Under the pieces are notes generated by a model. The model saw nothing but the letters and a program-made list of their open reading frames with translations, was not told the origin of the DNA and made no database searches. Made by a program: the position numbers and the translations under genes. Of a stretch of DNA of 64,000 bases, positions 1-48,473 are shown in pieces; within the stretch, counting starts at the first letter, position 1; the number at the start of each line of letters is the position of its first letter. Source of the DNA: Rubrivivax sp. (lineage in GTDB: Bacteria > Pseudomonadota > Gammaproteobacteria > Burkholderiales > Burkholderiaceae_C); assembly GCA_018780805.1 (NCBI GenBank), contig JADMJD010000079.1, positions 10,167 through 74,166 of the forward strand, read 5' to 3'.

Positions 1-3000
1 GTGGTGCCGGTGCCCGTGGTCAGCACCTGCAGGCTGGCGGCGCTGATGTCCAGGTCGGTGGTGCCGCTGTCGGAGATGGTCAGCGCCTGCAGGCTGACAC
101 CGCCGGCCGTGGCCAGGCTGCCCAGGCTCAGGCTGCCGGTGGCAACCAGGCGCAGCGTGCCACTGCCGGACGTGAGTGCTGCACCGTCGGCCAGCGCCAG
201 GTTGGCGCCGCTTTGCAGATCGATCGAACCGGCGCCGCTGGTGGTGACGTCACCCGCCGCGGCCAGGCTCAGGTTGCCGGACGCCAGCAGGCTCACCGGC
301 CCGCTGGCGTTGACGGCCGCGCCCAGGCTCAGCTGCCCGGCCAGCACGTCCAGCCGCAGGCTGCCCACGGTGCTGGCACTGGCCACGGCAAGGTCGCCGC
401 TGCTGAGTGTGAGCACCGCCGCCCCCCCGGCCTGCAGGCCTTGTTGCGCGGCCAGGGCCACGGCGGCACTGCTGCCATCGGCAGCCAGGCGCTCAGCGGC
501 CACGGCCACCGCGCCCAGGCTGAGCCCGGCGTCGTCGGCCAGGAAGACCGCACCGGTGCCCGCCACCGCGGTCAGCGTGCCGGTCTGCAGTTCCAGTGCA
601 TTCGCGCCGCTGCCGATGCTGCTGCCGGCCGTCAGGCGCACCGCGGCGGCGACGACGTCCACGGCGCTGTCGCCGTCGGCATCGCTGTCCAGGATGCGGT
701 CGGCCAGCAAAGCGGCGTTGGCCGTGCCGGCGCTGATGCTGACACCGACGCCGGCCAGCGTCAGATCGCCCGCGGCACTGAGCAGCAGGTCGCCATTGTT
801 CGTGGCAAGCGTGGCGCCCAGGCTCAGGTGGCGGCCAGCCTCGGCGACGATGCTGCGGCCAGCGGTGTCGGTGCCGATGGTCGCGCTGGCCAGCACATCG
901 CGGCCCGCGACCAGGCCCAGGTGGCCGCCGGTGCTGCGCACGGCTGCGGCCAGGCTCAGGTCGGCCGCCGAACCCATGGCGGCCAGGCGCAGCGGCCCGG
1001 CGGCGAGTGCCGCACCGCCCGCGGCCAGGCCCAGGCTGCCGGTGTTCGTGAGGATCAAGGCGCCGGCACTGACGAGGTCCGACAACGGGGTGTCACCCGC
1101 CACCTCGGACACGCTGCCGTCGGCCGCGACACGGGCGATGGTGGTGGCCGCCAGGGTGTCGATCAACAGGCTGCCGGTGTTGGCCAAGTAGAGCCCGTCG
1201 GCCCCGGCGCTGGCCACGAGCTGGCCCACGGCCAGGTCCAGCGCGTCGCTGCTGCTGCCCAGGCCGCCACTGCTGGCCACCAGGCGCAGGCGGGCGGCGG
1301 TCACGTCGACGGCATCGTCACCATCGGTCACGGCCGTCGCCGACAGGCTGACCGTGCCGGTGCCGGCATCCAGCGCCGACAGGCTCAGCACGCCGGCGCT
1401 GGCCATGCGGGCATCACCACCGCCGGTGCTGGCGCTGCTGCCGGCCGCCATCGTCAGCGCGGCGCCGGCTTGCACATCCAGGTCCGCACCGCCGGTGAGC
1501 AGGCTGCCGCCGGCCGCCAAGCTGAGCGTGCCTGCGGACTGCAGCGACAGCACACCACCACCGCTGTCCACGGCCGCGGCGATGTGCACGGCGCCGGCCT
1601 GGGCGACCAGCCGCAGGGCACCACCGTCGCTGTCGACGGCCGCGTCCACGCCCAGGTCGCCGGCCAGGCTGGTCAACACCAGCGGCGCGGCGCCCAGCGC
1701 GCTCAGGCCGCTGCCGCTGACGGCCAGGGCCGACAGGCTGCCGTCGGCCGCGACGCGGTTGACGTTGAAGGCCACGCTGCCCACATTCAGGCCGTCGCTT
1801 TCGACCAGGTGAACGCCCCCCGCCGAGCTGCGGGCGGCCAAGGTGCTGACCGCGATCTCCAGCGCATTGGCCGCGCTGCCCAGACCGGCACCGGCCTGCA
1901 GCCAGACCTGGGCGGCGCTGAGGTTGATGTTGCTGTCACCCGTTGCATCGGCGTCCAGCAGCGCAGCCCCGGCGACCAGGGCGATGTCACCCCCCGTCGC
2001 CACGAGGTTGGCCACCGTCAGCGCGCCGCCGGCCTGCAGGTGCTGGCTGGCGGCGGTGCTGCCGACACCGGCGGCCATCACCAGATCGGCCGCAGCGAGC
2101 AGATCGACGCTGCTGCCGGCCACGGGCGCCGACAGCGTCAGCTGGGCCGCCGATTGCACACTGAGCGCAGCACCAGCCGTGAGGCCTGAGCCGACCTCCA
2201 GCGCACCGGCCGTCGTGGCCAGCAGCGCGGCGCCCGTGGCCGCCACCGTGGCGCCCGCACCGATCTGCAGCGCGCCCCCGCTGCGCAGCACCAGGGCCGC
2301 GCCGCTGTTCAGGCCGGCCAATGCGCTGTTGATGCGCGGGTCGGTGTCCAGCGTGCCATCGGACAACACACGCACACCGGTGGTCTGCGCCAGCGCCACC
2401 ACCTGCAGCGCATCGGCTTCGGCCAGGTACAGGCCGCCGCCCACGGCGCCCGCAGCCAGCTGCGCCACCTGCAGTTGCAACGGCACGCTCGCCGTGCCGG
2501 CGGCACCGGCCGTGGCGGCCAGGCGCAGGGCGTCCGCGGTGAACAGCGCTCCCGCGCTGCCTTGCCAGGACGCGGCCGAGAGGTTGATGTCGCCGCTGCC
2601 GGCGTTCAGGTCGTCCACCGTCGCCGCGCCGATGGCGAGCAGGCGCATGTCACCACCGGCCGTGCTGGTGGCCTGGCTGAAGGCCAGCGCTGCGCCCGCC
2701 TGCGCATCGAGCGACCCACCACCACCGACGGCGATGGCCGCCGAGGCCGTGAGGTCGCCGGTGCTGATCAGGCTCAGGCTGCCGTCCAGCGTGGCCAGCG
2801 CGGCGTCGATGTTCAGCGTGCCGGCGGCCGTGAGGCGCGCGTGGCCCACCGCGGTGGTGGCGACGGCACGGTTCAGGTCCAGCGTGCCGCTGGCGTCCAG
2901 CACCAGGGGGCCGGCGGCAGACAGGCCGGCCAGCGCGGCGTCGGCGGCCAGGGCACTGGCCGTGCCGTCCGCGGCCACGCGCTGTACCGCGGCGCCAGCC

Positions 3001-5522
3001 ACGCTGTCCACCGCCGTGAGGCCGGCCGACAGGAACACCGCGCCGCCCGCCTGCACCGCCACCGAGGCGGCATTGAAAACCAGCGCCTGCGCGCCACTGG
3101 CCACCGCGCCGCCGGCCGCGATGCGCAGCGCACCGGCCACGACATCGGTGCCCGGCGCAGCCGCCAGCGTCACGGCGCCACCCGCCTGCAGGCTGACGGT
3201 GCCGGCGCCCGCATCGGCGCGGCCAAGCTGCAGGGCTGCGCCGGCCTCGGCACGTTGGGCGCCACCTTGGGTGAGCAGGCGCACATCGGCGCCCATGCCG
3301 AGGTTGCTGCCGGCACGCAGGTCCAGCGTCTGGCCGCTGGCCGCCGCGCGCACGTCAAAGGCCGCGCCCTGCAGCAGCAAGGCCTGCGAAGCCAGCAGGC
3401 TGATGCTGCCACCCAGCGTCAGCACCTCGGCACCCAGGCTCAGGTCACCCGCCAGCGCCTGCAGCAGGATGTGGCCGCTGCCGCTGGCTTGTGCGCGCAC
3501 CGCGCCACCGACCGACAGCGTGCCGCTGCTGGCCAACACGGCGATGGCGCCATCGCCGGAACCTGCGGTGCCCAGCCCGGTGACCACGAGTGCCGTTTCG
3601 TCGACGAAGAAGATGCCGCCGCCGGCCGTGGTGCTGGCCTGCAGCGAGCCGACGGTGCCGCGCAGCGCGGCGCCTGCGGCACCCACGCCGCTGGCGGCTT
3701 CCAGGGTGACCACGGCCGCTTCACCCCGCAGGTTGGCCGTGTCGCCGGCCAGGCCGTCGAGGATGCGGCCACCGGTGGAGCGCAGTGTGATGGCGTTCGC
3801 GGCTTCGATGATGCCGATGCTCAGGTCGCCCGCGGCCTCGATCTCGACGATGCCGCTGGGCCCGGCCACGATGGTGATGCCGCTGAAATCCAGCATGCCG
3901 CCAGAGACAAAGGCCACGGTGCCGCCGTTGGACGTGACCGCCGCGCCGATGGCCAGGTTGCCGGTGCCAGCGGCGAGCGTGATGTTTGCTGCGCCGGTGG
4001 CGGTGATAGCCGCCGCTGCGGCGGTGGTCAAGGCGTCGGCGGCCGAGAGCAGCACCGTGCCGTCAACGACGTTGATCGGCGCGTTCAACACCAGATCAGA
4101 ACCGGTGCCCAACGCCTGCAGCGTGAGTGCGCCGCTGCCGGCGATGGCGATGCCGGCACCGGCGGCCAGCGTGATGCTGCCGTTGTCGGCCAGCAGCGAT
4201 ATGTCGTTGGCCCCGCTGCCGGCCGCTTGCGAAAGGCTGACCACGGTGACGGCGCCGGTGATCTGCGTGTTGTCGAAACGCGTGGTGTTGCGCGCGGTGT
4301 TGATCTCGATGGCGATGTCGCCGGCACCGCTGTTGCTGGCCTGCAAGCTGTTGGTCTCGACCGAGTCCAGCGTGATGCCGGTGGCGGCCGACACCACCAG
4401 CAGCGGCGTGCGCAAGGCTTCATCAACGCGGTTGTCAGCACCTGCATCGGCCTGCACCACGCTGCCGCCGCTGCTGACCAGGCTGACGCTGTCGGCCTCG
4501 ATCTCGTTGGCCAGGTTGATGTTGCCGCTGGCCTCCAGCGCCAGGCTGTCGCCGGGCCCCAGCCGCAGCATCGCGTTGGGGTCGCTGTAGTCGCTGACGG
4601 TGATCGTGCCGCCACGCAGCACGGCAGGGTCGCGCAAGCTCACGCCGTCCAGGGCCGTTTCGGCGCCCACCGTCATCGCGCCCTGCCCGGTCTGGCCGAT
4701 GGCGATGCTGGAGAAGCCGTCGGCGAAGGCCCGCATCTCCGCGGTTTCCAGGTTCAGCACGCCCGCGGTGGCCGCACCCACGGGCGACAGCAGCGCCGTG
4801 GCCAGGCCGGGCGTGGCAGCGCGCAGGGTCAGCAGGCCGGTGCCGCTGAACAACTCGTCGCCCATCTGCAGGTCGATCTCGTCGGCCTCGATAGTGACGT
4901 TGCCTGGTGTCGTCGCCAAGCCGAGCTGCAGTTCGACCGCCGCTTTGAACACCACCTGCGTGGCGCCAGTGATGTTGAGGCTGCCGCCGTTGCGCAGCGT
5001 GATCTGGTCGTTGAAGGTGATGATGCCGCCGGCGTCGATGGTCAGGTTGCCGTCGACTATGAGTTCGCCCCCAAAGGTGACATCTTCACCGGCCACGACC
5101 GTTAGACCGTTCAACGCGTCTCTACCGTCCCCCTCTTCAACTGCACCAAAGAATGTGACATTGCCCCCTGCCACGACCAGTAACGTGTCGGTACCCGAGG
5201 AATGACTCACGACATAGTCAGTCGCATCGTCCCCTATCCGAACGTTGCCTACAGTTGCCTCGATACGCCGATCCCCGTCTACCTCAATCGATGTCTGTAT
5301 CGAGCTGATGTTGCCCGTTGCCACAATCAGGTCTGTGCTCAAGACGAAGGGCAGCCCGCTCAACGGCACGATGACGTCCTCATCCGCCTGCGGCGCCAGC
5401 GCCATCAGGCCTGCAGTCAGCGGGTCGGCCGACAGCAGCAACCGGGCCTCCAGGGCCTCCACGCGCCAGGCTTCGCGCAGTGCGCGTTGGAGCTTCGAAG
5501 CCGGCGTGCGGTCACAGTACAA
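1..5522 (-). CDS. Second giant LEPR-XLL-leader surface/adhesin-like protein, beta-helix-like repeats; 3' end runs off the window (>1,840 aa); not in the supplied ORF track
   Basis: Translated by hand: TTG at 5522-5520, GGAGG 6 nt upstream (5533-5529). Reads MYCDRTPASKLQRALREAWRVEALEARLLLSADP... The frame was read fully over 5522-4981 and spot-checked at 3001, 1201 and 1-40 (...DISAASLQVLTTGTGT) with no stop. The track lists no minus ORF in this frame, consistent with no stop inside the window. Codons are strongly G/C-ending outside 5050-5340. Confidence 0.9.
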   Translation of the reverse strand, partial: MYCDRTPASKLQRALREAWRVEALEARLLLSADPLTAGLMALAPQADEDVIVPLSGLPFVLSTDLIVATGNISSIQTSIEVDGDRRIEATVGNVRIGDDATDYVVSHSSGTDTLLVVAGGNVTFFGAVEEGDGRDALNGLTVVAGEDVTFGGELIVDGNLTIDAGGIITFNDQITLRNGGSLNITGATQVVFKAAVELQLGLATTPGNVTIEADEIDLQMGDELFSGTGLLTLRAATPGLATALLSPVGAATAGVLNLETAEMRAFADGFSSIAIGQTGQGAMTVGAETALDGVSLRDPAVLRGGTITVSDYSDPNAMLRLGPGDSLALEASGNINLANEIEADSVSLVSSGGSVVQADAGADNRVDEALRTPLLVVSAATGITLDSVETNSLQASNSGAGDIAIEINTARNTTRFDNTQITGAVTVVSLSQAAGSGANDISLLADNGSITLAAGAGIAIAGSGALTLQALGTGSDLVLNAPINVVDGTVLLSAADALTTAAAAAITATGAANITLAAGTGNLAIGAAVTSNGGTVAFVSGGMLDFSGITIVAGPSGIVEIEAAGDLSIGIIEAANAITLRSTGGRILDGLAGDTANLRGEAAVVTLEAASGVGAAGAALRGTVGSLQASTTAGGGIFFVDETALVVTGLGTAGSGDGAIAVLASSGTLSVGGAVRAQASGSGHILLQALAGDLSLGAEVLTLGGSISLLASQALLLQGAAFDVRAAASGQTLDLRAGSNLGMGADVRLLTQGGAQRAEAGAALQLGRADAGAGTVSLQAGGAVTLAAAPGTDVVAGALRIAAGGAVASGAQALVFNAASVAVQAGGAVFLSAGLTAVDSVAGAAVQRVAADGTASALAADAALAGLSAAGPLVLDASGTLDLNRAVATTAVGHARLTAAGTLNIDAALATLDGSLSLISTGDLTASAAIAVGGGGSLDAQAGAALAFSQATSTAGGDMRLLAIGAATVDDLNAGSGDINLSAASWQGSAGALFTADALRLAATAGAAGTASVPLQLQVAQLAAGAVGGGLYLAEADALQVVALAQTTGVRVLSDGTLDTDPRINSALAGLNSGAALVLRSGGALQIGAGATVAATGAALLATTAGALEVGSGLTAGAALSVQSAAQLTLSAPVAGSSVDLLAAADLVMAAGVGSTAASQHLQAGGALTVANLVATGGDIALVAGAALLDADATGDSNINLSAAQVWLQAGAGLGSAANALEIAVSTLAARSSAGGVHLVESDGLNVGSVAFNVNRVAADGSLSALAVSGSGLSALGAAPLVLTSLAGDLGVDAAVDSDGGALRLVAQAGAVHIAAAVDSGGGVLSLQSAGTLSLAAGGSLLTGGADLDVQAGAALTMAAGSSASTGGGDARMASAGVLSLSALDAGTGTVSLSATAVTDGDDAVDVTAARLRLVASSGGLGSSSDALDLAVGQLVASAGADGLYLANTGSLLIDTLAATTIARVAADGSVSEVAGDTPLSDLVSAGALILTNTGSLGLAAGGAALAAGPLRLAAMGSAADLSLAAAVRSTGGHLGLVAGRDVLASATIGTDTAGRSIVAEAGRHLSLGATLATNNGDLLLSAAGDLTLAGVGVSISAGTANAALLADRILDSDADGDSAVDVVAAAVRLTAGSSIGSGANALELQTGTLTAVAGTGAVFLADDAGLSLGAVAVAAERLAADGSSAAVALAAQQGLQAGGAAVLTLSSGDLAVASASTVGSLRLDVLAGQLSLGAAVNASGPVSLLASGNLSLAAAGDVTTSGAGSIDLQSGANLALADGAALTSGSGTLRLVATGSLSLGSLATAGGVSLQALTISDSGTTDLDISAASLQVLTTGTGT

Positions 5523-8500
5523 GGCTGTCCTCCCAGTAGTCGAAGCGGTCGCTGCCCAGGCTGCCAAGGCCAGTGGCCGCCGGCTGTTGTGATGCGCTGC
5601 CCAGCACCCAGCCCTGGGCCAGGCGGCTGGCCAGGCCGAAGGCCTCGACACTCAACCCGGCGTCGATGGCCATCGCGGGGTCGATGGTGGCGCCGGGCAG
5701 CGGGTCGGCCGTCAGCGTGGCCAGGTAGGCGGCGGCGGCGCTGCCGGCCGGCAGGGCGCGGTCGCCATCCAGCGCCGCCAATGCGCTGCGGGCCCGGGTG
5801 TCGCTGTCGCGCAGCTCGGCCAGCGGGCGCAGAGCGTTCAGCCAGGCGGCGGCCGCAGCGGCATCGCCACTGCTCAGGTCGCCACCGCTGGCGGCGCGGG
5901 TGCTGGGGCCCTGGGCCTCGATCTGCTGGTGCAGCACACCGTCTTTCAGCAGGTTGTAGCGGGTGCGGCCATCGGCGGTGGAATCGCGCAGGATCAGGCC
6001 ACCGTCGGCGTCGATGTCCACGCGGTTGGCCTCGACGTCGATGGCGTCCATCGCCACCGACTGGCCGGCGCCCAGCACCGGGCCCAGGCCGCGCATCACC
6101 AGCCAGGCGGCCCGCACGTTGGTGGCGCTGTCCCGGTCGGCGTCGCTGATGCGCCCGCCGCTCACCAGCACCAGGCCGGCGCTGCCCGTGTCCAGCTCGG
6201 CGATGGCCAGGTCGCCGGCGGCGCACAGCGTGAGTTCGTGGTTGCCGGTGGCCAGCAAGGCGCCCGGGGCCATGCTGATCGCACCGCGGCTGGTGAGCAC
6301 CACGCTGGCGTCCACACTGCCGCGGCCGCTGAGCTCGATGCGGCTGCCGGTGGCGTTGAGCTGATCCAGCACCAGGGAAGACAAGGTGGCGGTGTCAATC
6401 ACCAGCGCGCCACTGCTGGCATCGCCCAGCTGCAGGCTGCCAAAACCTTGCAGCGCGGCCAGCGTGCCAGCGGTCAGCACCAGGCCATCGCCCGCAGCAC
6501 CGACGGTGAGGGTGGCACCCGCCGTCGTGGGCGTCAGCAGCACCTGCGCATCGGCGCTGCCGCGCACGCTGCCGTTGAACTGCAAGGCGTCGGCACTGAG
6601 CACCAGATCGCCGCTGGCCAACACCACATCGCCCAGCACGATGCGGCTGGCACCGGTGATGGTGAGGCTGCCGCCGTTCAGCACGATGGGGCCGGTGAGC
6701 GTGACCACACCACTGGCTTCGATGACGAGATTGCCGTTGAGGGTGACCTGGGCCAGCGTGACGTCGGTGGCGCCGTCGATCAGAAGGCCGTCCAGCGGTG
6801 TGGTGGCGCCGATGGCACCGGTGACCACCACGGGCGCGCCGTCGGCGTGCAGCTCCAGCCGGTCGGGTGCACCGCCCGGGTTGCCGTCGATCGCACCGTC
6901 GATGAGGATGGCGCCGTCCCCCGTGCCTTCGCCGGTGCCGGCCCGCACGACAAAGTCGCCCTGGATGCGCAGGTCGCTGTCGATCTGAACCGGGCCTTCC
7001 TGCGTGATGTCGTCGCCGCGCACGTCCAGCACGGCCCCGTCACCGCCGGCTGACAGCTCGATGTGGCCGCTGCCGTGGGCGGTGATGGCGCGGCCGTCAC
7101 TGGGTGTGCTGCCGTCCAGCAGGTCGATGCTGCCGTCCAGCGTGCGCAGGCCGATGCTGCCGTTGCCGCTGGTGGTGATGAGGTCGCTTTGCAGGAAATC
7201 GAGTGCCGCGCCGGCCACACCGTCGCTGCCGACACGGTGCACGCGCACGGCCACGTCGTGCACGCGGATGGCGTCGGCTTCCTGCAGCCAGATGCCGCCA
7301 GCCCCGGCGCGGGCGCTGACGGTGCCGGCCTGCGTTTCCACGCGTGCTGCGCTGCTGCCGATGCCTTGGCCGGCCTGCATCAGCAGGCCTTCGGCCGCCA
7401 CGCGCTGGCCGCTGCTGCCGATGATCCAGCCGGCGGCCACCAGCATCAGGTCGCCCGGTGTCGTGACACGGCCGATCTGGATGTCGGCCGCGGCTTCGAC
7501 CAGGGCATCGCCCAGCGTCGCCAGCAGGCCATCGCTGCCAAAACGCAGGCTGCCACCGGCCGAGAGCACCACCGTGCCGGCCGCATCGCCCGTGCCAACC
7601 AGGCCGTTCAGCTGCAGGTCACCACCGGCGCTGGCGCTCAGGTGGCCGGCTTGTGTCTGGGCGCTGCCGTTGATCTGCAGTGCACCGGCGCTGGCCAGCA
7701 GCAGGTGGCTGCTGCCACGGGCTGAGGCTGAACCATCGAGCGTCAGGCTGCCACCACTGGTGGCGACCAGCGTGCCGGTCGACAAAACCGTGCCGCCGAT
7801 GCGCAGCGAGGACTCGGCCTGCAGCCGCAGCGCACCTGCTGTGTCCAGCGTACCAGCCAGTTCCAGCGTGCTGGCGTTGATGGCGGCATCGCCGGCCACG
7901 GCCACCTCACCGCCCAGCGTCAGGGCCTGTGTGGCGGTCAGCACCAGGCGCCCACCGACTTGCATGTCACCGCCCAGGGCGATGGTGGAGGCGCTGGCCA
8001 GCAGGTCGGCCCCGGCGGCCAGGTGGCCGGTGGCCAGCAGATCACCCAGCGCGGTGAGGTGGAGGTCACCAGCGGCTTGCAGGTCGCCATTCAGCGTCAG
8101 CGTGCTGCCGGTGATGGCCAGGTCGCCGGCCGCCACGAGCGCAGCGTCGATCAGGATGTCGACGCCACTCAGCGTCAGGCTGCCGCCGGCGTTGACCGCG
8201 GCCGCGACCTGCAGCGCACCATCGGCCGCCAGCGCGATGGCGCCCCCGGCCTGGAGAGGTGCGCCGATGTCCAGCGCCGCGCCGCTGAGGCTCAGATCGG
8301 TGCCTGCCGTCACAGCGCCGGTGATGCTGAGCGTGCCGCCGCTGGCGAGCTGCACCGCCCCGTCGGCGCTGGCGCCAGTGACCGTCAGCGCATCGACGTC
8401 ACTCAGCACCAGGGCGCCGCTGCCAGCTGCAGCCTGCAGGCTGCCGGCTTCGGTGCGCAGGCCATCGCCCCAGGCACCGATGCCTGCACCGGCGCTGAGG

Positions 8501-11500
8501 ATCAGGGCCTGGCCGCGCAGGTTCACACCGTCGCCGCCAGCATCGCCGATGTGGCCACCCGCCGTGACCGTGATCGTCGCGACCGCGGCATCCACCCCGC
8601 CCAGCGAGATGTCGCCGGTGGCCTGCAACTGAATGGCGCCGCCGCCACTGCGCAGGCTGCTGTCGGCGGCCATCGTCAAATCACCGGCCTGCACTTGCAG
8701 CACGATGCTGCCGCCGGCCGTGGCCACCACCGCATCAGCCGCCAGCGACAGGTCGCCGCTGGTGAGCACCAGAGACAGATCGCCACCGACGCTGAGGTCG
8801 CCCAGCACCAGGTCCCCGTCGCGCACGGCTTGCAGGCTGCCGCCCACGCTGCCGCTCAAGCCGCTGGCGGCCAGATCGAGTGCACCGCCGCCGCTGGCCA
8901 GCACATCACCCGCCACCTGCAGCGTCAGCGCGCCGCCGGCCTGCAGGCCGCCGAGCACGGCGTCGGTGAGCGCCTCTGCCGCCAGCGTGCCATCGGCCAA
9001 CACCACCGCCACGCTGATGGGACCGGCGCTGCCGATCAGCAGGTCACCCGCCGTCGTCAGGCTGACGGCGCCGCCGGCCGACACGGCCAGCACATCGGTG
9101 TCGAGCTGCACCGTGACCGCACCCCCGGCCTGCACACGCAGCTGCGTGGCCGTGACGGTGGACGACGACAGCACCGCGCCGCCGGCCACCAGGCTCAGCT
9201 CGCCGGCGGTGATGCCACCCACCGTCAGGTCGGTGCCAGCGGCCAGGCGCACATCGCCGCCGCCGCTGGCCAGCACGGCCGCGGCGTCCAGCGTGATGCT
9301 GCCGCCGGCGCGCAGGTCCAGCGTGTTGCCCTGGGTCAGCACGCGGCCGGTGGCGCTGACCAGCAGCGCGCCTTCGGCGACGATGCTGATGGCGCCGGTG
9401 CCGGCGTTCACCGTGGCGTTGATGTCGATGTCGCCCGGCACGGCCGGGGCGGCGCTGTTGGCGGCCAGCAGGATGTTGCCGCTGCCGGCGGCCACCACGT
9501 CGGCGTCCACGACGAAACGGCCTTCGTGTGTGTTGCCGTTGCTGATGACGATGGCACCGTCCACGCCCGAGGTCGCGCCCGAGACGCTGCCCACGGTGCC
9601 GACCACCAGGCCGTTGCCTTCGGCCAGGAAGATGCTGCCGGTGTCGCTGCTGGCGGCCAGCACGTTGACCGCGGTTTCGATGGCGGCCGTGCCGCTGCCA
9701 ATGCCACCTTCGGCCACCAGGCTCACCTGGCCGGCGGCGACGTGCACCACACCACCCGTGTCGGCGCCGACGATGGCACCGCCCGTGCTGACGCTGACGG
9801 TGCCGGTGCCGGCTGAGAACTGGCCGATCAGCACACCGCCCATGGCCTCGATGCGCTGCGCACCGCCGGCGCTGACCAGGCGCGCATCGGGCGCCATCAG
9901 CAGCTGGCCTCCGGCCACCACCTCCAGCAGCGATGCGGCATTTTTGGTCTGCGCGCGCTGGCCGGCGGCGAGCTGCACGTCACCGGTGGCGAGCAGGCGC
10001 AGGTCGCCGCTGTCGCTGACCACGTTGGCCTGCAGCAGGATGTGGGCGCCCGCGCCCAGCACCTGCAGTTGCACCCCGCCGTCGGTGGCGGCGCTGCTGG
10101 TGATGGACTGGTTGACGGTCAGGTCGCCAGTGCGCAGCGTCACGACAATCCGGCCACCGTCGGCCGCCAGGCCGCCGCCGACGAAGCTGAGTGCGTCTGT
10201 TTCATCCAGGAAGATGCCACCGATGCCGCTGTTGCCGCTGCTGTTGCTGGCGCCCACGGTCTGCAGCGTGGTGCGCAGCGCGGCCATGGCTTCGCCCACG
10301 CCCGTGGCCGCGGCCAGGCGGGCGGTGGGCGCGCGCAGGTTGGCCGCGTCGCCCGTCAGGCCGTCGCGCAAGGCCCCAGCAGTGCTGGTGAGCGCGAGGC
10401 TCTGGTCGGCGCTGACGATGGACAAGCGCATGTCGCCCACCGACTCCATCACCACCCGGCGTGCATCGGTGCTGGTGCTGCCGAGCGACGAGACCGTGGT
10501 GCCGTCGTCCATGACCAGGCTGCCACCGGCCGTGATGGTGACCAGGCCGCCCGCGGCCACGACATCGGCGCCGATATGCACATCGCCGCCCGTGGTGATG
10601 TTCAGCGCCCCGTTGCCGGCCAGCGTGATGCGGCCGGCGCCCGTGGTGCTCAGCGCGCCCGCCAGCTCGAGCGTGAGGCCACCGCTGGTGGTCTGCAGGG
10701 TCTGGGCCAGCAGCAGATCGGGGGCCTGTTCGGCCGCGCCGGCTGTGGCCAGCGTGATGCTGCCACTGCCGGCCGTCCACACACCGGAGCCAGCCGCATC
10801 GACCACCAGGCCACCGGCCGCAGCGCGCAGGTCGATGTTGCCGCTGCCCTGGGCCGAGAGCTGGGCCAGGCGCAGCACCGTCAGCGTGCCGTCGAGTGCC
10901 GCACTGCTGAAACGCAGCGTGTCGCGTGCGGCCAGCTGGCTGAAGAAAAAGTCGCCGTTGCCGCGGTTGACGGCGTCCAGCGTGCCAGCCTCCAGGCTCC
11001 CAAGCGACGCGCCTTCCAGCGTGTCCACCGTCAAGGCTGCGGTGCGGATGGCCTCGCCCAGCAGGCCATCGGCTGCGGCGTCGATCTGGCGCACGCTGCT
11101 GGTGGCCGACACCAGGTACACGGCATCGGCTTCGATCTGGTTGGCGATGGTGATCACGCTCACGGCGTCCAGCGTCAGCGTGGCGCCGGCGCCCAGGCGC
11201 AGCACGGCGGCGGCCTGGCTGTAGTCGGCCACGGCGATGGTGCTGCCGAACAGCGCCACGCTGTCGCGGAAGGTCAGGCTGTCCGCGTCCACCCGCGCGC
11301 CGACCGTGACGGCGCCGCTGCCCGCGAGCGCGTGGCCGTCGTTGCCCTGGTGGCCGATGACGATGCGGCTGAAGCCGTCGCCGAACGTGCGGATGTCGGC
11401 CATGTCGAGGTTCAGCACCCCGTTTGTGGCCACGCCGGCCGGCGACGCCACCGCGATGCCCTGCGACACCGTGGTGGAGCGCAGCGTGAGCAGGCCGCTG

Positions 11501-14500
11501 CCGGCCAGCTGCTGCTCGCTCATCGACAGGTCGATCTCATCGGCTTCCAGCAGGATGTCGCCCGCGCTGCCGTCCGCGGCCGTGCCCTGCAGGTTGACAC
11601 CGCCGCGCAGCAGGATCTGCGTGGCGCCGCGGATGATCAGGTCGCCGCCGTTCAGCAGCGTGATCGAGCCGTTGAAGGTGACGAGGCCGGTGGCGTCGAT
11701 GATCAGGTCGCCGTCGACCACGATGTCCTGGTCGAAGCTGACGTCACCCGCGCCCTGCACGCGCAGCAGCTGCAGCGCGTCGGAGCCTTCGTCGCCGCCA
11801 CCGATGCGGGACGCGACGCGGATGTTGCCGGCGCTGGCCAGCAGCGTCAGCGTGTCGCGGCCGGCCGAATCGCCACCCAGGTAATGGGTGTTGGCGCCGC
11901 CCAGCAGGATGTCGCCGCCCTGCGCGGTGATGACACGTTCGCCGTCCACGCGGATGGAGTCGAGCACCGTGACGTCACCGGCCGTGGCAGTGACATCGGC
12001 CACCACAGCCGTGGTGTCGCCAGAACCGAAGATGGTGAGCGACGGTGCCAGGAAATGTGCGCCGATCATCACGTGGCCGCCGTCGCCGTTGGTGAAGAAG
12101 ACCACGTCGTCGCGCATCGTGATCGCGCTGCCGTCGGCCGTCATCACCATCACCACCTGCGCGTTGCCGTTGGCACCGAAGACCAGCTGCGCAAAACCGT
12201 CGCGCAGGTTGGCCATGTCGGTGGCGTCCAGGTGCATCGCGCTGCCATCGGCCATCGAGAACACCCGCGCGCCGTTGCCGCCGCTCAGGCTGCCCAGCAC
12301 GATGCTGCCGTCGGCGGCGATGGTGCGGAAGCTCAGCGTGCCGCCGGCGCTGCGCATCGGCGCCAGGATGTCCACGTCGTCGGCGGCCACGCCCACGTCT
12401 TCACCGTCGGCGTCCACGGCGGCATCGATCACCTGCTTGCCGGCGAGGCTGATGACGTCGGTGCTGCCGGCACGAGAGCCGCTGCTGCCGCCGGTGCCCA
12501 GGCTCACGGCGCCTGCGGCGACCACCGCCACGGTGTCGCGTTCGCTGCTTACCGCGGCCACGCTGCCGGCGTTGACGAAGATCGCCAGCGGGCTGTAGCG
12601 GAAGCCCTCGACCGCCTCGCCGACCTGGTTCAGCGCGGTCAGCGTGAGCTGGCCGCCCACGGTCTCGACAAAGGCGCCGCCGGCACGTCGCAGGACAGTG
12701 CCGTTGCTGATGCCCTGGAAAACTTCTTCGTCAGGTGTCAGGTTGGCGGCCAACACCAGGCCGGAGTTGGCAAAAACCTCGAAGCGGCCTTTCGAGAGCG
12801 CCCACTCGAGCGACGCGGCAAAACCGTCCGCGCTGTCGAAGCCGCGCCATTGCGCAGCGGCCAGGTCGGTGAGGATGGAGCCTTGCACGGCGCGCAGCAG
12901 GATGGCACCGCCGATGTCGTCGCTGCTGTCGTTGGCGTTCACGCCATCGGCCAACACCAGGTCGCCGGCCTCGGCCGTGAGCGTGATGTTGCCGCCACCG
13001 CTGACCACATCCGCGCCGATGAACAAGCTGCCCTGGCCGGCGTACAGCACGATCGGCCCGCCGGTGGAGACGACACCGCTGCCACCGTCTTCAGCGCCCA
13101 GCACGGTGAGATCCCCACTGCGGGTGACGATCCGGACGGCGCTGGTCTGCGGCGTCGGGCCGTTGCTGTTCTGGCCCTCGGCGTTCTGGCGGATGGATTC
13201 GATGTCCAGACCATCCACTTCTTCGATGGAGATGTCGCCGCCGCCGCTGTTTTCCAGCCAGAGCGAACGCACCTGCACTTCGAGCGGGTTGCCGTCGTCG
13301 CCGATGCCGATGGTGCCCCCGATCCCGGCATCGGAGGTGATCACCAGCCGCGCCAGCGGCGCGACGATGTCGATGTCGCCTTCGCCCACGTCGACCACAC
13401 CGCCTGTGGTGATCACGACATCGGCGGTGGACGTGGTGCGCAGCTTGCCGAGCAGGATGGAATCGGTGGCCAGCAGCGTCAGCGTGCCGCCCGGGACGAT
13501 GCTGTCGTTGGGGTCGGGATCACTCACCCGCGCGTCCACATAGGTGGAGGCGTTCATCTGCAGGCCGCCGGCACCGGCGTTCAGCAACACGTTGCCGCCC
13601 AGCGTTGTGATGTCGGCCAGCTCGTTCATGAACAGGCCGTTGCCGGCGACCACGGTGACAGCGCCGCCCACCGTGGTGAGCGCCTGGCGCAGGTCGATCA
13701 GGCCGGCGGTGGACCGCAGGCTGATGGCCGCACCACCCAGGGTGGCCAGCGGTGCCTCGATCAGCAGATCGAGGCCGGCCGTGATGTCGATGGCCGCACC
13801 GGTTGACTCCAGCCGTGTGATGGTCAGGCCGGTGGCATCCACGATGGTGACGGCACCGCCAGCGCGGGCGTCCAGCGTCGTCGCGTCGATGTCGGCCTGG
13901 ACCGTGGTGCCGGCTTGCAGCACCAACTCACCGATCAGCGCCGTGCCGCTGAGGGTGATCGAGCCGGTGGCGATCAGCGTCATGCGGCCCACGCTGCCGG
14001 TCAGGCCCGACAGGTCGAGGTTGCCGTCGACGGTGATCGTCACGTTGCCGCCGTCCATCACCAGGCGGGTGATGTCCAAGTCCTCGCGCGCCAGGTTCTG
14101 TTCCAGCGCAAAGTCGCTGAACTGGCCGCTCGGGAGGTTGTCGCTGTCCAGCGTGACCTCGAGCACGCCGACGCGGGTCTGCAGGTTCAGGTCGTCGCCG
14201 GCTGCGACGTTGAGGCGCTGCGCCGTCACGGTGTCGCCCAGCGTCAGGCTGTTGCCCGCGCTCAGCGTGACGATGCCGGTGCTGCCGGTATTCAGTGCAT
14301 CCACGACCACCAGCGACTCGTCGGCACGCAGCGTGATGGTGTCGCCGGCGTGGGTCTGCAACAGCACCACCGACAGGCTGCCGCCCAACGCGCGGTAGGC
14401 CACGGTGCCCGGGTCGCGGTCCGGCAGGATCAGCACCGAGTCACCGTCCAGCGGCACCTCGGTGGCCAGGCCCGCGCTGCGCGAACCGGCGCCTACCGCA

Positions 14501-17500
14501 AACGGATCATTGTTGTTGACCGCCGTGAGCGTCAGCGTGCGTGCGTTGGCGTCGAACGCGGCGGTGACCTCGCCGGTGCCGGTGGCCAGATCGGCCATCT
14601 CCTGCAGCAGGCCGGCCCAGTCGACCGCGGCATCGACACCCAGTTCAATCTCGAAGGCGGTGGTCCCCACCGTCAACGTGAACAGGTCACCCGTGGCCAG
14701 GTCGCCCACGAAGGCGCTGAAGTCCAGCGTGCTGATCTGGCGGCTCAGGATGCCGGCGGGGGTGGGCGTGCTCGTCGAGACGCTGGCGCCGGCGGCCGTG
14801 CGGTCGATGGCGTCGAGCACCGACATGCCGCTGACGCTGAAGCCGGTGTTCTGCTGGTCGGCCGTGAGGCGGACGGCGCGGTCCGGCACGCCGGCAGCGG
14901 CGGTCACCGCGAGGCTGGTGTCGTCGTTGATCGCATCGATCAGGCCGTCGATCACCTCGTCCCAGCCGTCACCCTGCGCCACGGTGTAGGAGAAAACCGA
15001 GGCGTTGACGGTGACGCTGACCACATCGGCCACGCCCAGCGGCGCGTCCTTGAACTGGAACTGCGAAATCTGCGTGCTGTTGGTGCCGGGGTCCTGCACC
15101 CGCGCGGTGGTGCCGACACCGGAGGACTTGGTGATCGTCGCGGTGGCGGAGACGTTGAAGTCGACATCGTCGGCCACACCCGTCAGCACCAGGCGGCCAC
15201 TGCCGTCGACGGTGGCGTTGGCCGTGGGGTCGCTGGCCATCGCGTCGGCAAACAAGTTCGCGAGGCTGGCGTTGGTCGGGCCGTTGCCGGAATTGACGGT
15301 GTAGACCTGCCCTTCCAGGTTGATGCTGTAGCTGACGTTGGGCAGCGGGTTGGGCGAGAACGTCACGCGCCAGATGTCGGGCTGGTTGTTGTCGGCGTTC
15401 TGCACCTGGACGGGTGCATCCACGCTGTCGGTGGCGCTGATGGTGCCGATCGTGAAGCTGGTGTTGCCGACCTCGGCCTGCAGGCGCAACACACGCGGCG
15501 TGCTGTCCACCGTGATGCCGGTGCTGCCTGTGATGCTGGTGCTGTTGCCCACCCCGCCGGTGACCACGACCACATCGCCCTGGGCGTAGGCGTTGTAGGG
15601 GGCAGAGGCATCGACCAGGCCCGCCAGCGCCGTTGCGATCGAGGCCGCCGAGTCGCCGCCTTCGGCCGTCAGGAAGGCCTCGTACTGGAAGGTCGTGCCG
15701 GCGATGGTGATCGAGTAGACCGCGCCATTCGTGACCGTGACCGCACTCAGGTGGACCGTGCGCTCACCTGCCTGGAGGTCTTGGCCGGCTTCGATCTTCA
15801 GGCCCAGCACGGCCACCAGGGTGCGTGCATCGGCAACCGTGAATCCGCCCAGCGTCTCGCCAAAGCTGGCGGTGTAGGTGCTGCTGTTCACGACCACGCT
15901 GTAGGTCTTGCCGGCGTTGACCGGGATGTCGTCGGCCAGCGTCACCGTGCGCCGCTCGTCACGCACAAAACCGGCAGCAACCAACGGGGTGGCCCCATCG
16001 TTTTCCACGACATCGGCCGTGTCCAGCGGCGTGGTCACGAACTCGCGCACCTCGGCGGCCACCGTGAAGGCCTGGTTCGGCGTGGTGGCGGTGATCGTCA
16101 GGGCGTCATCGCTGCCCACCGAGACGGTGTAGGGGCCACCTGCGCTGATCTGGGCTTCGAGGCCGGCGAGCATGGCGTCGAACTCGAGCGCCGTGGCAAA
16201 GTCACCTGCCACGCTGATGGTCTGGCGGAAGGTCTGGCCCGCCAGCGTGACGCTGTACACCATGCCGTCGGTGGCCAGGCCACCGAACACCACGCGGCTG
16301 GACTGCGCGCGGTCGATGCCGGCCGTCGAGACGGCATCCACCTCGGCGGTCTGCACGCCCAGGCTGCCGTTGATGACACCTTCTTCGGTGATCTCCGTCT
16401 CGCCCGTGGTCAACGAGCCGCTGTAGCGCAGGTCCAGATCGGTGCCGGTGCCGCGGTCGCCAGCGCCGTCCAGGCGCTTCGTGACCGCGTTGCCGAGCAC
16501 CGTGAGGCTGTACGCATAGACGTCTGCCGCGCCCTGCTCTTCGGCGTTGTCGCCGCGGTCCAGCCACTCGACGATGTCCACTGTCGAGGCGTTGCCATCG
16601 TTGGCGTCCAGGTAGACCGTGGAGCCTGCCACCTTCTGCGCGCCATCGCTAGAGCCGGCTTCGATGCTGTCGATGGAAAGCAGGCCGTTGGCACGCACCG
16701 AGATGCCGTGGCCGCCGGTGAAGTTGACGATCTGGTCCACGTTCACCGAGCCGCCAGCCTCGACGCTGATGCTGCCGGTGCGCGCGCTGATCAGTTCCAC
16801 CGTCAGTTCGCCGGCTTCCTTGATCGTGATGTTGCCGGTGCCGGTGCTGACGGCCACCAGGGTGTTGATCAGCGTGTTGGCCTGGATGCTGCCCGTGGTC
16901 AGGATGTCCAGCCGGTCGGCGATGAACACCGACGCGGCGTCGGCGCTCAACGTGGTGGCGCGCACCACCAGCGCACCCGTTCCTTCGGGCACCGGCTGAC
17001 CGTCGGCCGGGGTCTGGGCGCTGACGATGCCACCGAAGAGCTTGAGCTCGCCCAGGATGTCGAGCCGCACGTTGCGTGCGGCGTCGAAGCCCGTCAGGCC
17101 ACCGACGAAACCGCGCAGTTCCAGGCTGGTGGCCACGTCCAGGCGGATGTTGCCGGACGCCCGCAGCTCGAAGCTGTCCACCGGCAGGCTGCCCAGGCGC
17201 AGCAGGATGTCGCCGGTGTCGGTGTTGGCGTTGGGGTTGTTCGCGCCGCCGGCCCATTCTTCGATCACGTCGTCGAAGTCACCGTCGCCGTTGTAGTCGA
17301 TCTGCTGGCCGCCTTCGATCAGCAGGTCCAGCTTGTCGCCGTCGTTGTTGAGGTCCAGGTCGAGGTCGATCTCGCTCAGCGTGTCCTGGGTGTCGCCATC
17401 GTTGTTGTAGTCGTTGGCGCCTTCGGTGGTCTCGTGCAGCACGGAGCTGAACTCGCCGTCGCCGTCGTAATCGCGGCCGGAGCGGGATGCGGCATCGCCA

Positions 17501-20500
17501 CGGGCCGTGATCACCAGCACGTCGATGTTGCTGCCGGCGCTGGTGCCGCCGAAGTAGCTGGCCTTGTGCAGGATCTGGGCGGGCGTGTTGTCGTCCAGGC
17601 CGGTGATCAGCACGCTCTCGCCGGCGATCAGCTCCAGGCGGCGGTTGGCGCTGATGCTGCCGGTGATGCTGAGCGTGCCGCCGGTCTCCAGGATCAGCGT
17701 GTCGGCCGCCAGCACCGTGGGCAACATGCGCGTGGTGTCGGCATCGATGCCGGTGCCAACACCGCTGCCGAAGACGAAGTAGTCCTGAGCCCGGTACTCC
17801 ATCCACTCGTCGGCTTCGAAGAACTGGTAGAGCTGCACCGTCTCGCCGGCCACGAAGGCCACGCCGCGGGTGTACTGCAGGGCGTCATCACCGTTGTCCA
17901 TGGCAAACGGCACGATCACGCTGGCGTCGGTGCTGGCCAGGCGGATGCTGTTGCCGCGTACCAGGCCTTCGATGAAGTTGTCATCGCTGGCTATGCTGCC
18001 CACACGCAAAGTGTTCACGGCCTGCAGCTCGACCCGCGTGGTGCCCGCCAGCGTGTTGGCACTCGTGGCCCGCAACACGTCCAGGCCCAGCTGGGATTCC
18101 AGTGCACCATCGGACTCGAAGAGCTGGATGTTGCCGCCAGACGTCTCGACCCACAGCGTGTTGGCAGCGATCTCCAGCCCGATCACACCCGTGTCAGCCT
18201 CGATCACCAGGCGGTCGGCCACGACGTCAACGCCGTCATCGAGCACACTTTCCAGCACCGAGCCGCCGGTGGAACGCAGCGTCACGTCACCGGCGGACGA
18301 CACCACCGTCGGCGCCGCGAAGCTGCCGTCCGGCAGCCGCACCTGCGGCGCTTCACCGGCGTTGTTGTAGAAAACACCGGCTGAGACGAACCGCACCAGC
18401 AGATCGCCCGCGGCCTCGACCTCGATCTCGGCGGTCGGCGTGCCGGCCGTTTCCTGGTCGCGGTTGGAGCTGACACGCACCGAACCCAGTTCGACCACGC
18501 CCTGGCCGGTGAGCCGGAAGCTGCCGTCGGCCACCACGGCGCTGCGCACCAGCAGGCGTGTGTCGGTCTGCTGGATGTTCACCTGTGCGAAGGCCACGGT
18601 CTGCAGCAGCAGCACCGAGACATCGCTGTTGATGTCGACGATGCCGATGTGGCCGGCGGTGCCGTCGTCATCCTGCCGCCCGCTGACCACGCTCAGCTCT
18701 TCGGCCTGGATCACGCCGCCCAGGCTGCTGCGCACCTCGCCTTCGGCCTTGATGAAAATGTCGCCGCGCTGCGCGTTGGTGAGCACCTGGCCCAGCAACA
18801 GATCGCTGCGGAAACCGCCCGCCTGGTAGACGCTGAGGAAGATGTCGTTGTTGTCGGTGCTGCCGTCGGCACGCAGCAAGGTGGCCGTGACGCTGCTGAA
18901 GCTCTTGATGCGGATGAAGCCATCGGCCACCCGCACCTGGTCCAGCGTCAGCTGGTAGTCGGCCGAGGTGGCAACCTGCCCCACAGGCACCACAACCTGG
19001 TTGACGAGGTCGATGTTGCCCGCGCCGCTCAGGCGGGCCCACTCAATGCGCTGCACCGCGGTGGCCAGCACGATGCCGGTCTCGGCCTGCGCGCGCAGCA
19101 CCGCGCCGCTGACCAGGCCGTTGATGGCCGGGTTGCCGAAGTCGTCGGTGACCACGTCGCCATCGGCATCGGTGAAGAAGGTCTGCAGGATCTGGCCGGA
19201 CTCGGCCGTCATGCTCACGGTGCCACTGGCGCTCAGCGCCGCGCCGTCCAGCCGGATGCTGCCGGCGTAGGGGCCGGCCATCAGCGTGAGGTCGCCGGCC
19301 AGCGCCGCCAAACGGGAGTCGCTGTCGATGTCGATGCCGCCGGCACCCCGGCCGTCGACGATGTTGTTGTTGGCGTCACGCGTGACGGCGCCGGCCTCGA
19401 TGGTGATGCTGGACGCGGTGATGGCGCCGCTGAGGCCGATCTCACCGTCGGCACGCAAGGTGACGCTGCCCAGCACGCCGCTGTCGGCCATGATCTGGCC
19501 ACCGACCAGCAGGTCGCCGTCGGTGGTGAGCAGGATGCTGGCGGCGCCCTGGGTGCCCACCTGCGTGCCGCCGAGCACGGTGGAATCGTCCACCCGCGTG
19601 ACGATGCCGGAGTGCAGCTCGATGCGGTTGCCCAGCAGCTCGGTGGCGCGGCGGGCTGCGCCGGGATCGTCACTCAACAACTCACCGCGCAGCGCCACCT
19701 CGCTGCCGGCGTTGACCTGCAGGAAATCGCTGGCCGAGATGCGGCCGCTCAACCGCACCGATGCACCGGCGTCGAGCAGGATGTTGCCGGCGTTCAGCGA
19801 CGCGTCGGAGCTGCTGTAATTGCGCGCACCGGCGTCGATCTCCTGCACCGTGGTGACCAGTTGCGACTGGATCACGATGTTGGGCACGTCCTGCCACACC
19901 GTGACCGACTGGTACTGCGTGACCATCACCTCCTGCACCGTGGTCTGGTAGACCGGCCGGTAGTCGACGATGTCCTGGCTCTGCGTCGTCAGCGTGTAGC
20001 TGAGCTGGATGCGCTGGTCGTAGACGTTGGCGTAGGTGGACGTCCAGGTGTAGCGGTAGTCATTGTAGGTTTCGTAGTGGTAGCCCCAGGCCTTGTACGA
20101 GCTGTAGTCGTCGTTGCGGACCACGTTGCCCGTGCCGTAGTAGGGGTCGCGGACACCACCGTAGTCGATGTGCTGGTAGCCATCGACGCGGTAGGTGGTG
20201 CTGTAGAACTGGATCGAGGAGTGTTCGTCGTTCGGGCCGCTGCCCACCCAACTCACGTTGCCGATCCAGGTGTTGCCGAAGCCACTGCCGACGCCGTGTT
20301 CCCACGCCGTGAAGATGGCGTTGCCGTTGTTCTGCACGGCACCGACGGCACCTGACACGCCGTTCCAGGACGGGGTGCGGGTGGTCGGGTTGCCACCCTC
20401 GAGCACCAGGCTTTGGGTGGTGCCCGTGACGGTGTCCAGCGCACCGAGGTAGTTGTTGGGCGCATAGATCGCGTGGGTCTGGCCAAAATTTTGGCCGCGC

Positions 20501-43320: not shown

Positions 43321-43376
43321 GCGACGACCTCATCAGGGTTACCCCGGATGCGCTTGCAAGCCGCGGGTGAGGCCGG

Positions 43377-43406
43377 AGGTTAACGGCTTTTGTCCCGCTT
43401 TTTCAA
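43377..43406 (-). promoter_or_regulatory. Candidate sigma70 promoter for the giant-protein genes
   Basis: Minus strand TTGAAA (43406-43401), 18-nt spacer, TAACCT (43382-43377), in the relatively AT-rich part of the divergent intergenic region. Consensus match only. Confidence 0.3.
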
Positions 43407-43422
43407 GAGTGCAATCGGATGT

Positions 43423-43451
43423 TTCATGCCGGGCCCAAGCTCACCCATAAT
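43423..43451 (+). promoter_or_regulatory. Candidate sigma70 promoter for the sapC-tolC cluster
   Basis: Good -10-like CATAAT at 43446-43451; weak -35-like TTCATG 17 nt upstream. Confidence 0.25.
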
Positions 43452-43482
43452 GATTTGGAGGCCCAGTCCCCAGAGGAGTCCC

Positions 43483-44211
43483 ATGTTCGAGAAAGTTGTC
43501 CCGGTCAACCGTGAGCGCCACGCCAAGACACGCGTGCGTGAGATCCAGGGTTTTGGTTTTGCCGCCAAGTTCCACATCGCCTATGTGACGATGCACGAGT
43601 TCTCTCGCGCCGCGGCGGTCTACCCCATCGTGTACGTGGAAGACAAGGACAGCTTCCGCCCGGTGGCCCTGCTGGGCCTGGACGCGGGCGAAAACCTGTT
43701 CGTCGCGCCCGACGGTGGCAAGTGGGAGGCCTCCTACGTGCCGGCCATCATCCGGCGCTACCCGTTTGCGCTGGCCGCGACTGGCGGCGAAGGCCAGTAC
43801 ACGATCTGCCTGGATGAAGGCAGCGAACTGATCAGCACCACCGACGGCAGCCCGCTGTTCGACGACAAGGGCGAGCCCACCCAGGTGATTGAAAACGTCA
43901 AGCGCTACCTGGCGGAACTGCAGCAGATGGACCAGCTCACGCAGCAGTTCACGCAGTTCCTGAAAGAGAACAACATGCTCACGCCGCTGAACATGCGCGT
44001 GCGTGACAACGACAAGGTGAAAAACATCGCCGGTTGTTATGTCGTCAATGAAGAACGGCTGAACAACCTGAGCGACGAGAAGTTCCTCGAATTGCGCAGC
44101 AAGCGCTTTCTGCCCGCGATCTACGCGCAATTGATGTCGCTGGCCCAGATCGAGCGGCTGATGACGCTCAAGGACAAGCGCCATGCCCCTGCGCCGGCGG
44201 CCAAGGCCTGA
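43483..44211 (+). CDS. sapC: SapC family protein (242 aa)
   Basis: HEFSRAAAVYPIVY...PVALLGL...NLFV...W...YVPAIIRRYPF are the motifs I recognise for SapC. The ATG at 43483 follows GAGGAG, so it is preferred over the track's upstream start at 43390. Confidence 0.85.
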   Translation: MFEKVVPVNRERHAKTRVREIQGFGFAAKFHIAYVTMHEFSRAAAVYPIVYVEDKDSFRPVALLGLDAGENLFVAPDGGKWEASYVPAIIRRYPFALAATGGEGQYTICLDEGSELISTTDGSPLFDDKGEPTQVIENVKRYLAELQQMDQLTQQFTQFLKENNMLTPLNMRVRDNDKVKNIAGCYVVNEERLNNLSDEKFLELRSKRFLPAIYAQLMSLAQIERLMTLKDKRHAPAPAAKA

Positions 44212-45751: not shown

Positions 45752-45755
45752 AACG

Positions 45756-46550: not shown

Positions 46551-46554
46551 TCTC

Positions 46555-48456: not shown

Positions 48457-48473
48457 CCAGAAGATCAACCTGA

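Follow-up and report, generated by a model that had tools for sequence, protein, structure and literature searches.

A Rare-Codon Patch in a Giant LEPR-XLL Gene Coincides with a Sharply Bounded, Probably Imported Segment

Introduction

Genes can become mosaic when diverged alleles recombine, the classic cases being the penA and pbp mosaic alleles of Neisseria and Streptococcus. Here we analyze a segment of about 290 nt that gives a mosaic structure to one gene of an uncultured bacterium from groundwater. The gene (gene 2) is the second of two giant genes on the minus strand of a 64 kb stretch of DNA of 70% G+C, which we refer to as the window (Rubrivivax sp., assembly GCA_018780805.1, contig JADMJD010000079.1, positions 10,167 to 74,166). 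Replacement of divergent segments is also known from Pseudomonas aeruginosa, in which the pilA, pyoverdine, O-antigen, and flagellin glycosylation loci are replacement islands (PMC7685784). A link between recombination and the G+C content of third codon positions (GC3), involving GC-biased gene conversion, has been described in bacteria as a genome-wide statistical trend (Lassalle et al., 2015, PMC4450053).

Both giant genes encode LEPR-XLL proteins, an almost unstudied class. Near its start, gene 2 contains a patch that is rich in codons ending in A or T, and an earlier note, made from the sequence alone, had offered three explanations for it: recombination with a lower-GC donor, a programmed translational pause, or an embedded regulatory element. 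We demonstrate that the patch coincides with a sharply bordered replacement, that its phylogeny is incongruent with that of its flanks, and that its codon pattern is absent from orthologues. We propose that homologous recombination probably brought in this segment from an unsampled lineage with a deeply diverged allele, leaving the rare codons as its footprint.

Results

The codon anomaly is confined to one patch of gene 2

The sequences compared in this section are as follows.

2 to 5522, minus strand: gene 2, encoding a LEPR-XLL protein; 1,840 codons lie inside the window, and the gene runs off the window's left end (orthologues are about 2,600 aa).
5512 to 43320, minus strand: gene 1, encoding a LEPR-XLL protein of 12,602 aa; it served as an internal codon-usage control and has no comparable dip.
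5058 to 5336, minus strand: run of A/T-ending codons in gene 2 (codons 63-155), with a GC3 of 0.61 compared with about 0.90 in the remainder of both genes.

The hand counts that first drew attention to the patch proved exact. Codons ending in A or T make up 39 of the 100 codons in 5342-5043 and 33 of the 80 in 5342-5103, compared with 3 of the 38 codons directly upstream of 5342, and all of the rare codons listed at the time are present (ATA three times, GTA twice, and TTA, CTA, and AGA). The background frequency of A/T-ending codons is 10.2%, which gives a binomial p value of 3e-14 for the patch. From the amino acid sequence and the codon usage of both genes, 11.2 A/T-ending codons would be expected (standard deviation [sd] 3.0; z = 9.2). 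When a 100-codon window was moved along both genes (about 14,400 codons), the mean count was 10.3 (sd 3.9) and the maximum outside the patch was 23, and an index similar to the codon adaptation index was 0.23 in the patch, with a mean of 0.70 and a minimum of 0.50 elsewhere. No equally deep dip was found elsewhere in the two genes. Codons that account for less than 5% of their synonymous set make up 18 of the 100 in the patch.

The shift lies almost wholly in third positions. These are nearly uniform within the patch (A 17%, T 22%, G 29%, C 32%), compared with 90% G/C in the host, and the G+C content by codon position is 0.63/0.43/0.61. The values for first positions (GC1, 0.63) and second positions (GC2, 0.43) fall inside the range of the orthologous segments, and the amino acid composition is unshifted. 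Over all positions, the 300 nt interval 5054-5353 is 55.7% G+C, the second lowest value in 64 kb; the lowest is that of 43886-44185, which lies upstream of gene 1 within a SapC gene.

The patch coincides with a segment that is replaced in closely related strains

The window originates from a groundwater metagenome, sample S1, and sequencing run X1 contains all of the window's sampled words. Runs X2-X5, from a separate groundwater study, contain 19%-42% of these words. Contigs from X2, X3, and X4 match the window on both sides of the patch and define three features.

5067 to 5356, minus strand: strain-variable replaced segment of 290 nt, encoding approximately aa 56-152 of gene 2, with contigs from X2, X3, and X4 matching both flanks.
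5357 to 5411, minus strand: flank at the upstream junction, for which no difference from the X2-X4 strain is listed; beyond it, differences begin at 5412 and 5415.
5035 to 5066, minus strand: flank at the downstream junction, likewise free of listed differences from the X2-X4 strain and encoding a conserved rung, GNLTIDAGG.

In place of 5067-5356, the X2, X3, and X4 contigs have 293 nt that are less than 80% alike. The X3 contig (31.6 kb) is colinear with positions 1-20000 of the window and aligns as three pieces of 97.6%, 98.0%, and 99.0% identity, which are separated by only two breaks: 5067-5356 (290 nt versus 293 nt) and 8527-8587. Because the X3 alignment skips just the segment that is also the codon outlier, the compositional outlier and the sole large island of divergence in 20 kb are the same 290 nt. 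The patch is thus a sharply bordered divergent block between near-identical flanks in a close relative. The other break, in gene 1, involves 61 nt in the window and about 73 nt in X3, and Tandem Repeats Finder did not identify it as a tandem-repeat array.

More distant relatives (X5, X8, and X10) lose alignment at 5053-5068 and again at 5370. The 31-mers of the patch were found in run X1 only, while sequence from the flanks was found in approximately ten further runs.

A block that is seen in a single metagenomic sample, at a modest depth of 12.9, could have been joined to its flanks during assembly. In such a chimera, the patch would come from another, lower-GC organism in S1 and would have been connected to gene 2 through shared k-mers, and the sequence adjacent to the patch is highly conserved among relatives, which is typical of the places at which chimeric joins occur. 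However, in an independent assembly of X1 (Logan, k = 31), an unbranched contig of 58.5 kb passes through 4000-6500 with 0 differences, and X1 contains neither a second contig on the patch nor one that carries an alternative allele between the flanks. The patch is also in frame, homologous, and of matching length, and the supposed source organism would itself need flanks that are identical over 32-55 nt, so that it would be a mosaic too. We therefore consider an assembly chimera to be quite unlikely.

A further feature lies close to the downstream border.

4905 to 4944, minus strand: another, smaller divergent tract of 40 nt, which shows 13 differences relative to X2-X4 and contains AAA, GAA, ACA, and CCA codons.

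Between this tract and the patch lies a conserved stretch that looks native, and the two may stem from one discontinuous recombination event. In the aligned flanks (4000-6500 compared with X2-X4), an A/T in the window corresponds to a G/C in the sister strain at 28 sites, and the reverse is the case at 14 sites; the window's lineage thus has a mild A/T excess even outside the patch.

The phylogeny of the patch conflicts with that of its flanks

The protein sequence of the patch was used for an exhaustive profile search, which yielded five relatives, four of them full length (about 2,600 aa). DNA was obtained for the four full-length relatives (loci L002-L005), each of which has the same pairing of a giant gene with a gene of 2.6 kaa; a Pelomonas parva genome provided a fifth orthologue, L001. 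The dip in codon usage is absent from the corresponding position of all five orthologues, including that of P. parva. The homologous segments have a GC3 of 0.95 in L002 and 0.97 in L003, compared with 0.61 in the window, and over the whole length of the four full-length orthologues the count of A/T-ending codons per 100 codons peaks at 15-20. Because the orthologues are GC3-rich at this position, the pattern lacks conservation.

The closest full-length orthologue is that of L002 (protein P0003). Its amino acid identity to the gene 2 product is 100% over aa 1-45, 42% within the patch, and 82% over aa 156-1840. At the nucleotide level, identity to L002 per 50 codons has a mean of 0.80 (sd 0.083), and the patch, at 0.41, is the minimum, the next lowest value being 0.65. 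The window's patch is only 43%-56% identical to every orthologue. P0003, on the other hand, resembles P0002 and P0004 as closely within the patch (62%-63% identity) as outside it (for P0002, 62% in the patch and 59%-65% in the flanks). As P0003 keeps its usual identity to these proteins, it is the window's allele that is the odd one.

We compared informative sites among the window, L002, and L003 inside and outside the patch.

Flanks: window and L002 agree at 544 sites, window and L003 at 185, L002 and L003 at 179.
Patch: window and L002 agree at 28 sites, window and L003 at 43, L002 and L003 at 68.

The site patterns of flanks and patch differ strongly (Fisher p values of 1.6e-18 and 3.6e-9). 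The window is sister to L002 outside the patch, and inside the patch it is the outgroup to L002 and L003. The block therefore has a phylogeny that conflicts with that of its flanks. It aligns with all of the orthologues (290 nt versus 293 nt), as a homologous in-frame replacement would and an insertion would not.

Two observations bear on which lineage changed. Between the same anchors, the L002 segment is 293 nt long, which is the length of the replacement in X2-X4, and the loose ends of X10 are identical to L002 at 28-29 of 30 positions. The length match and the resemblance of the X10 ends to L002 suggest that X2-X4 carry an allele of the L002 type, rich in GC3, that this type is the usual one, and that the recipient was probably the window's lineage.

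The divergence is old and saturated

Within the patch there are 136 nucleotide differences from L002, comprising 84 transversions and 52 transitions, with many exchanges between C and G. Where the two sequences encode the same amino acid, the codon is identical in only 18 of 44 cases, and there are three codon-length insertions or deletions. The divergence of the patch is thus old and saturated and is not the result of a recent burst.

These properties argue against the possibility that the divergence and the A/T enrichment were generated in situ, by local hypermutation through error-prone repair, a deaminase, or a diversity-generating retroelement (DGR). The tract is short and sharply bounded, as this possibility would predict, and the differences from orthologues do lean from G/C to A/T (59 versus 29, and 61 versus 16). 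But recent C-to-T hypermutation is incompatible with saturated synonymous sites and with an excess of transversions over transitions, and the numbers of A-ending and T-ending codons are balanced (18 versus 21), which speaks against strand-coordinated deamination. A divergence of 40%-46%, at saturation and with the fold retained, is not what a local mutator would be expected to leave.

We also looked for a template from which the patch could have been copied. Neither a repeat search nor blastn found a second copy of it in the window, and its only repeat content is one internal rung repeat of 27 nt, 78 nt apart. The idea of a DGR template repeat was rejected because the window contains no second copy of the patch. 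The substitutions extend beyond adenines to all classes and are accompanied by the insertions and deletions, and there is no template in the 64 kb, a region outside of which a reverse transcriptase was not searched for. Taken together, these results make in situ hypermutation very unlikely.

The nearly uniform third positions fit a source of lower G+C content with weak codon bias. They also accommodate the decay of silent sites in an allele that does not recombine, to which we return below.

The patch shows no sign of an embedded element or a conserved pause

The position of the patch, directly behind a putative export leader, and its share of very rare codons would suit a selected function, such as a translational pause at rare codons behind the LEPR-XLL leader or a promoter, RNA, or silencer-binding site embedded in the gene. 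Stretches of A/T-rich DNA within a G+C-rich genome are also able to attract nucleoid proteins. However, the codon usage of gene 1 is normal behind the same kind of leader, and neither the five orthologues nor the closest strains show the pattern. The normal codon usage of gene 1 and the lack of a dip in any orthologue exclude a conserved pause or signal; the rare codons do not form a cluster that is shared by orthologues or by the paralogue. The programmed pause that had been suggested earlier is thus not supported.

The proposal of an embedded regulatory element fared no better. Scans of 4500-6000 returned 0 promoter-like sites and a single terminator-like hairpin (0.7 expected), Rfam gave no match at E ≤ 1 in 4000-6500, and folding of both strands of the patch as RNA gave no structure signal (z-scores of +0.97 and -0.09). 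An overlapping gene in another frame was considered as well and was rejected because no frame of the patch shows the native GC3. A selected functional feature is the least likely of the explanations that we considered, and we regard it as highly improbable.

The encoded segment is predicted to form the first rungs of a β-solenoid

The patch remains recognizably homologous to a module of gene 1, as had been noted from the sequence (38% identity at 11994-11704 by tblastn). We modeled aa 1-360 of the gene 2 product with AlphaFold2, using an alignment with six relatives (the five orthologues and P0001). The mean predicted local distance difference test score (pLDDT) was 78.6, and the predicted template modeling score was 0.77. 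In the model, the leader (aa 1-55) is disordered, with a pLDDT below 50 for aa 1-49, and is followed by a regular β-solenoid (aa 60-360). Residues 61-160 have block pLDDT values of 72-97 and are modeled as rungs of the solenoid, which indicates that the patch retains the reading frame and the predicted β-solenoid fold. The patch is thus predicted to encode the first few rungs of a fiber-like, probably exported protein.

A Foldseek search against the PDB returned only nonsignificant matches to β-helices. The HMW1 secretion domain ranked first (E = 0.08, TM score 0.30), and the weak neighbors included two-partner-secretion domains, tapirin, RsaA, and tailspikes. As the best E value was 0.08, we do not assign the protein to a fold family. 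Pfam gave no match in gene 2.

The source of the segment and a balanced polymorphism

Our searches yielded no donor, and several observations weigh against the proposal that the segment came from another, lower-GC lineage. With the patch alone as the query, the SRA word index contained no near-identical sequence (the only match was in X1). A word-index search of protein sequences with the patch gave no match, an absence that is unreliable because the index also missed P0003. The best match in the exhaustive search of representatives was 59% identical in amino acid sequence and is GC3-rich, and a scan of JGI contigs with peptides of the patch gave no match. Furthermore, GC1, GC2, and the amino acid composition are unshifted, and prolonged residence in a genome of lower G+C content would be expected to move them a little, although 100 codons provide little power to detect such a change. 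The codon usage looks unbiased (ATA for 3 of 8 isoleucines, GGG for 6 of the glycine codons) and does not resemble the usage typical of an adapted gene in a mid-GC proteobacterium.

When the word index was queried with aa 1-500, it gave only a relative of 38% identity and missed P0003, which shares 45 identical N-terminal residues with the query and is a cluster representative in the protein collection searched. A scan of JGI sequences with a degenerate pattern for the LEPR region also returned nothing.

Nothing closer than 59% amino acid identity was thus found in the databases reached, which are incomplete. This lowers the certainty about the source of the segment but not about its mosaic structure. 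The same distinction applies to the earlier proposal of a recombined patch from a lower-GC donor: the recombined patch was borne out by the sharply bounded replacement relative to a strain of 97.6%-99% identity and by the conflicting phylogeny, but the donor itself was not found, and we infer its lower G+C content.

A further explanation is an old, balanced polymorphism within the species. Diversifying or frequency-dependent selection, imposed perhaps by phage, by predators, or by partner recognition, would maintain two or more allele classes of the N-terminal module, and recombination would homogenize the flanks. The rare allele, too divergent to recombine, would escape GC-biased gene conversion or efficient selection for G/C-ending codons and would lose GC3 toward mutational equilibrium. 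Sharp borders within identical flanks are in keeping with this explanation, as is the surface-type β-solenoid that the segment is predicted to form. Nearly uniform third positions with unshifted GC1 and GC2 suit the decay of silent sites better than a stay in a different proteome, and recombining bacterial genes have a higher GC3 (Lassalle et al., 2015, PMC4450053). On the other hand, the window's class of allele comes from one sample only, and the other sampled relatives carry GC3-rich alleles that agree with the phylogeny of the flanks. The segment is not unusually variable among orthologues, as the P0003-P0002 comparison showed, and decay of GC3 from 95% to 61% would need a split time of about species level. 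We therefore consider a balanced polymorphism to be unlikely. If the allele class were indeed balanced, it would provide a natural experiment showing that recombination, through GC-biased gene conversion, and not codon selection holds GC3 at 90% in this genome.

The gene 1-gene 2 junction and neighboring genes

The start of gene 2 and its leader contain two further features.

5520 to 5522, minus strand: TTG start of gene 2, with GGAGG at 5533-5529, six bases upstream.
5415 to 5468, minus strand: LEPR-XLL motif of gene 2 (aa 19-36; NCBIfam NF012209), in the leader that is predicted to be disordered.

The NF012209 scores are 25.2 bits for gene 2 and 32.1 bits for gene 1, with a curated cut-off of 17, and the motif lies at the N-terminal start of both products, which places the two among the NF012209 giant proteins. 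Gene 2 shares its first 11 nt with the end of gene 1 (stop at 5512), an overlap that suggests translational coupling of the 12.6 kaa and 2.6 kaa genes. The same 11 nt overlap is called in the orthologous loci L002, L003, and L004; in L005, the two genes are about 75 nt apart and do not overlap.

On the plus strand, divergent from gene 1, positions 43474-52411 encode a SapC-family protein, a TolC-like outer-membrane factor (OEP), two HlyD-type adaptors, a peptidase-M50/HlyD-like protein, and a protein with a SecA DEAD-like domain. These genes could constitute a dedicated export or processing system for the LEPR-XLL proteins. The window's lowest G+C content (0.55-0.57 per 300 nt) is found at 43305-44185, which takes in most of the SapC gene together with the intergenic DNA upstream of gene 1; the SapC gene has a GC3 of just 0.82 and a GC2 of 0.40.

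Discussion

We propose the following sequence of events for the replacement. The window's strain would have split from its closest sampled relatives, at a nucleotide divergence of approximately 1%-2.4%, and recombination would have followed. About 290 nt of gene 2, encoding the first β-solenoid rungs behind the LEPR-XLL leader, would have been exchanged by homologous recombination for the homologous segment of a deeply diverged allele, whose source was probably of lower G+C content. The junctions would fall in 5357-5411 and 5035-5066, where no strain differences are listed. The imported piece would have preserved the frame and the fold while bringing with it the codon usage of its source, and because it carries that usage, the rare codons would be a historical footprint and not a device.

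Gene 2 is, on this evidence, an ordinary mosaic gene, and the patch is not a regulatory device. Mosaic tracts in surface-type genes are what bacterial recombination ordinarily produces. Explaining the codon anomaly as history and not as function removes the need to pursue a presumed pause site or hidden regulator. This reading also identifies the first β-solenoid rungs behind the LEPR-XLL leader as a segment that is exchangeable between lineages without breaking the giant protein. Further alleles could reveal whether diversifying selection acts on this module and how quickly imported silent sites return to high G+C content.

The closest parallel is provided by the penA and pbp mosaics. As in those genes, a divergent block with sharp borders interrupts a sequence that is near-identical elsewhere, the reading frame is preserved, block and flanks have conflicting phylogenies, and the block has the base composition of its source (which is inferred in our case). 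The locus differs from them in that the block is only 290 nt long, with no known donor species and no attached phenotype, and in that it lies in the gene for a giant LEPR-XLL β-solenoid protein of an uncultured groundwater Burkholderiales bacterium.

DGR variable regions share with the patch the character of a short, sharply bounded, strain-variable coding tract in a surface protein. Unlike them, the patch has no template repeat in the window, its changes are not specific to adenines, and it contains insertions and deletions; it also lies at the N terminus in a predicted β-solenoid, whereas the fold of DGR variable regions is that of a C-type lectin.

The trend described by Lassalle et al. ties heterogeneity of silent-site G+C content within a genome to recombination history, as we propose for gene 2, where a single tract of 290 nt is concerned. 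The replacement islands of P. aeruginosa offer a likeness on a larger scale, as all strains carry the locus at one position of a G+C-rich genome, in deeply divergent versions that have a surface or secreted function. Those islands comprise whole genes or clusters with several well-sampled types, whereas here a segment smaller than a gene is exchanged, and of the two types seen, the L002 type occurs in several samples and the window's aberrant allele was seen once.

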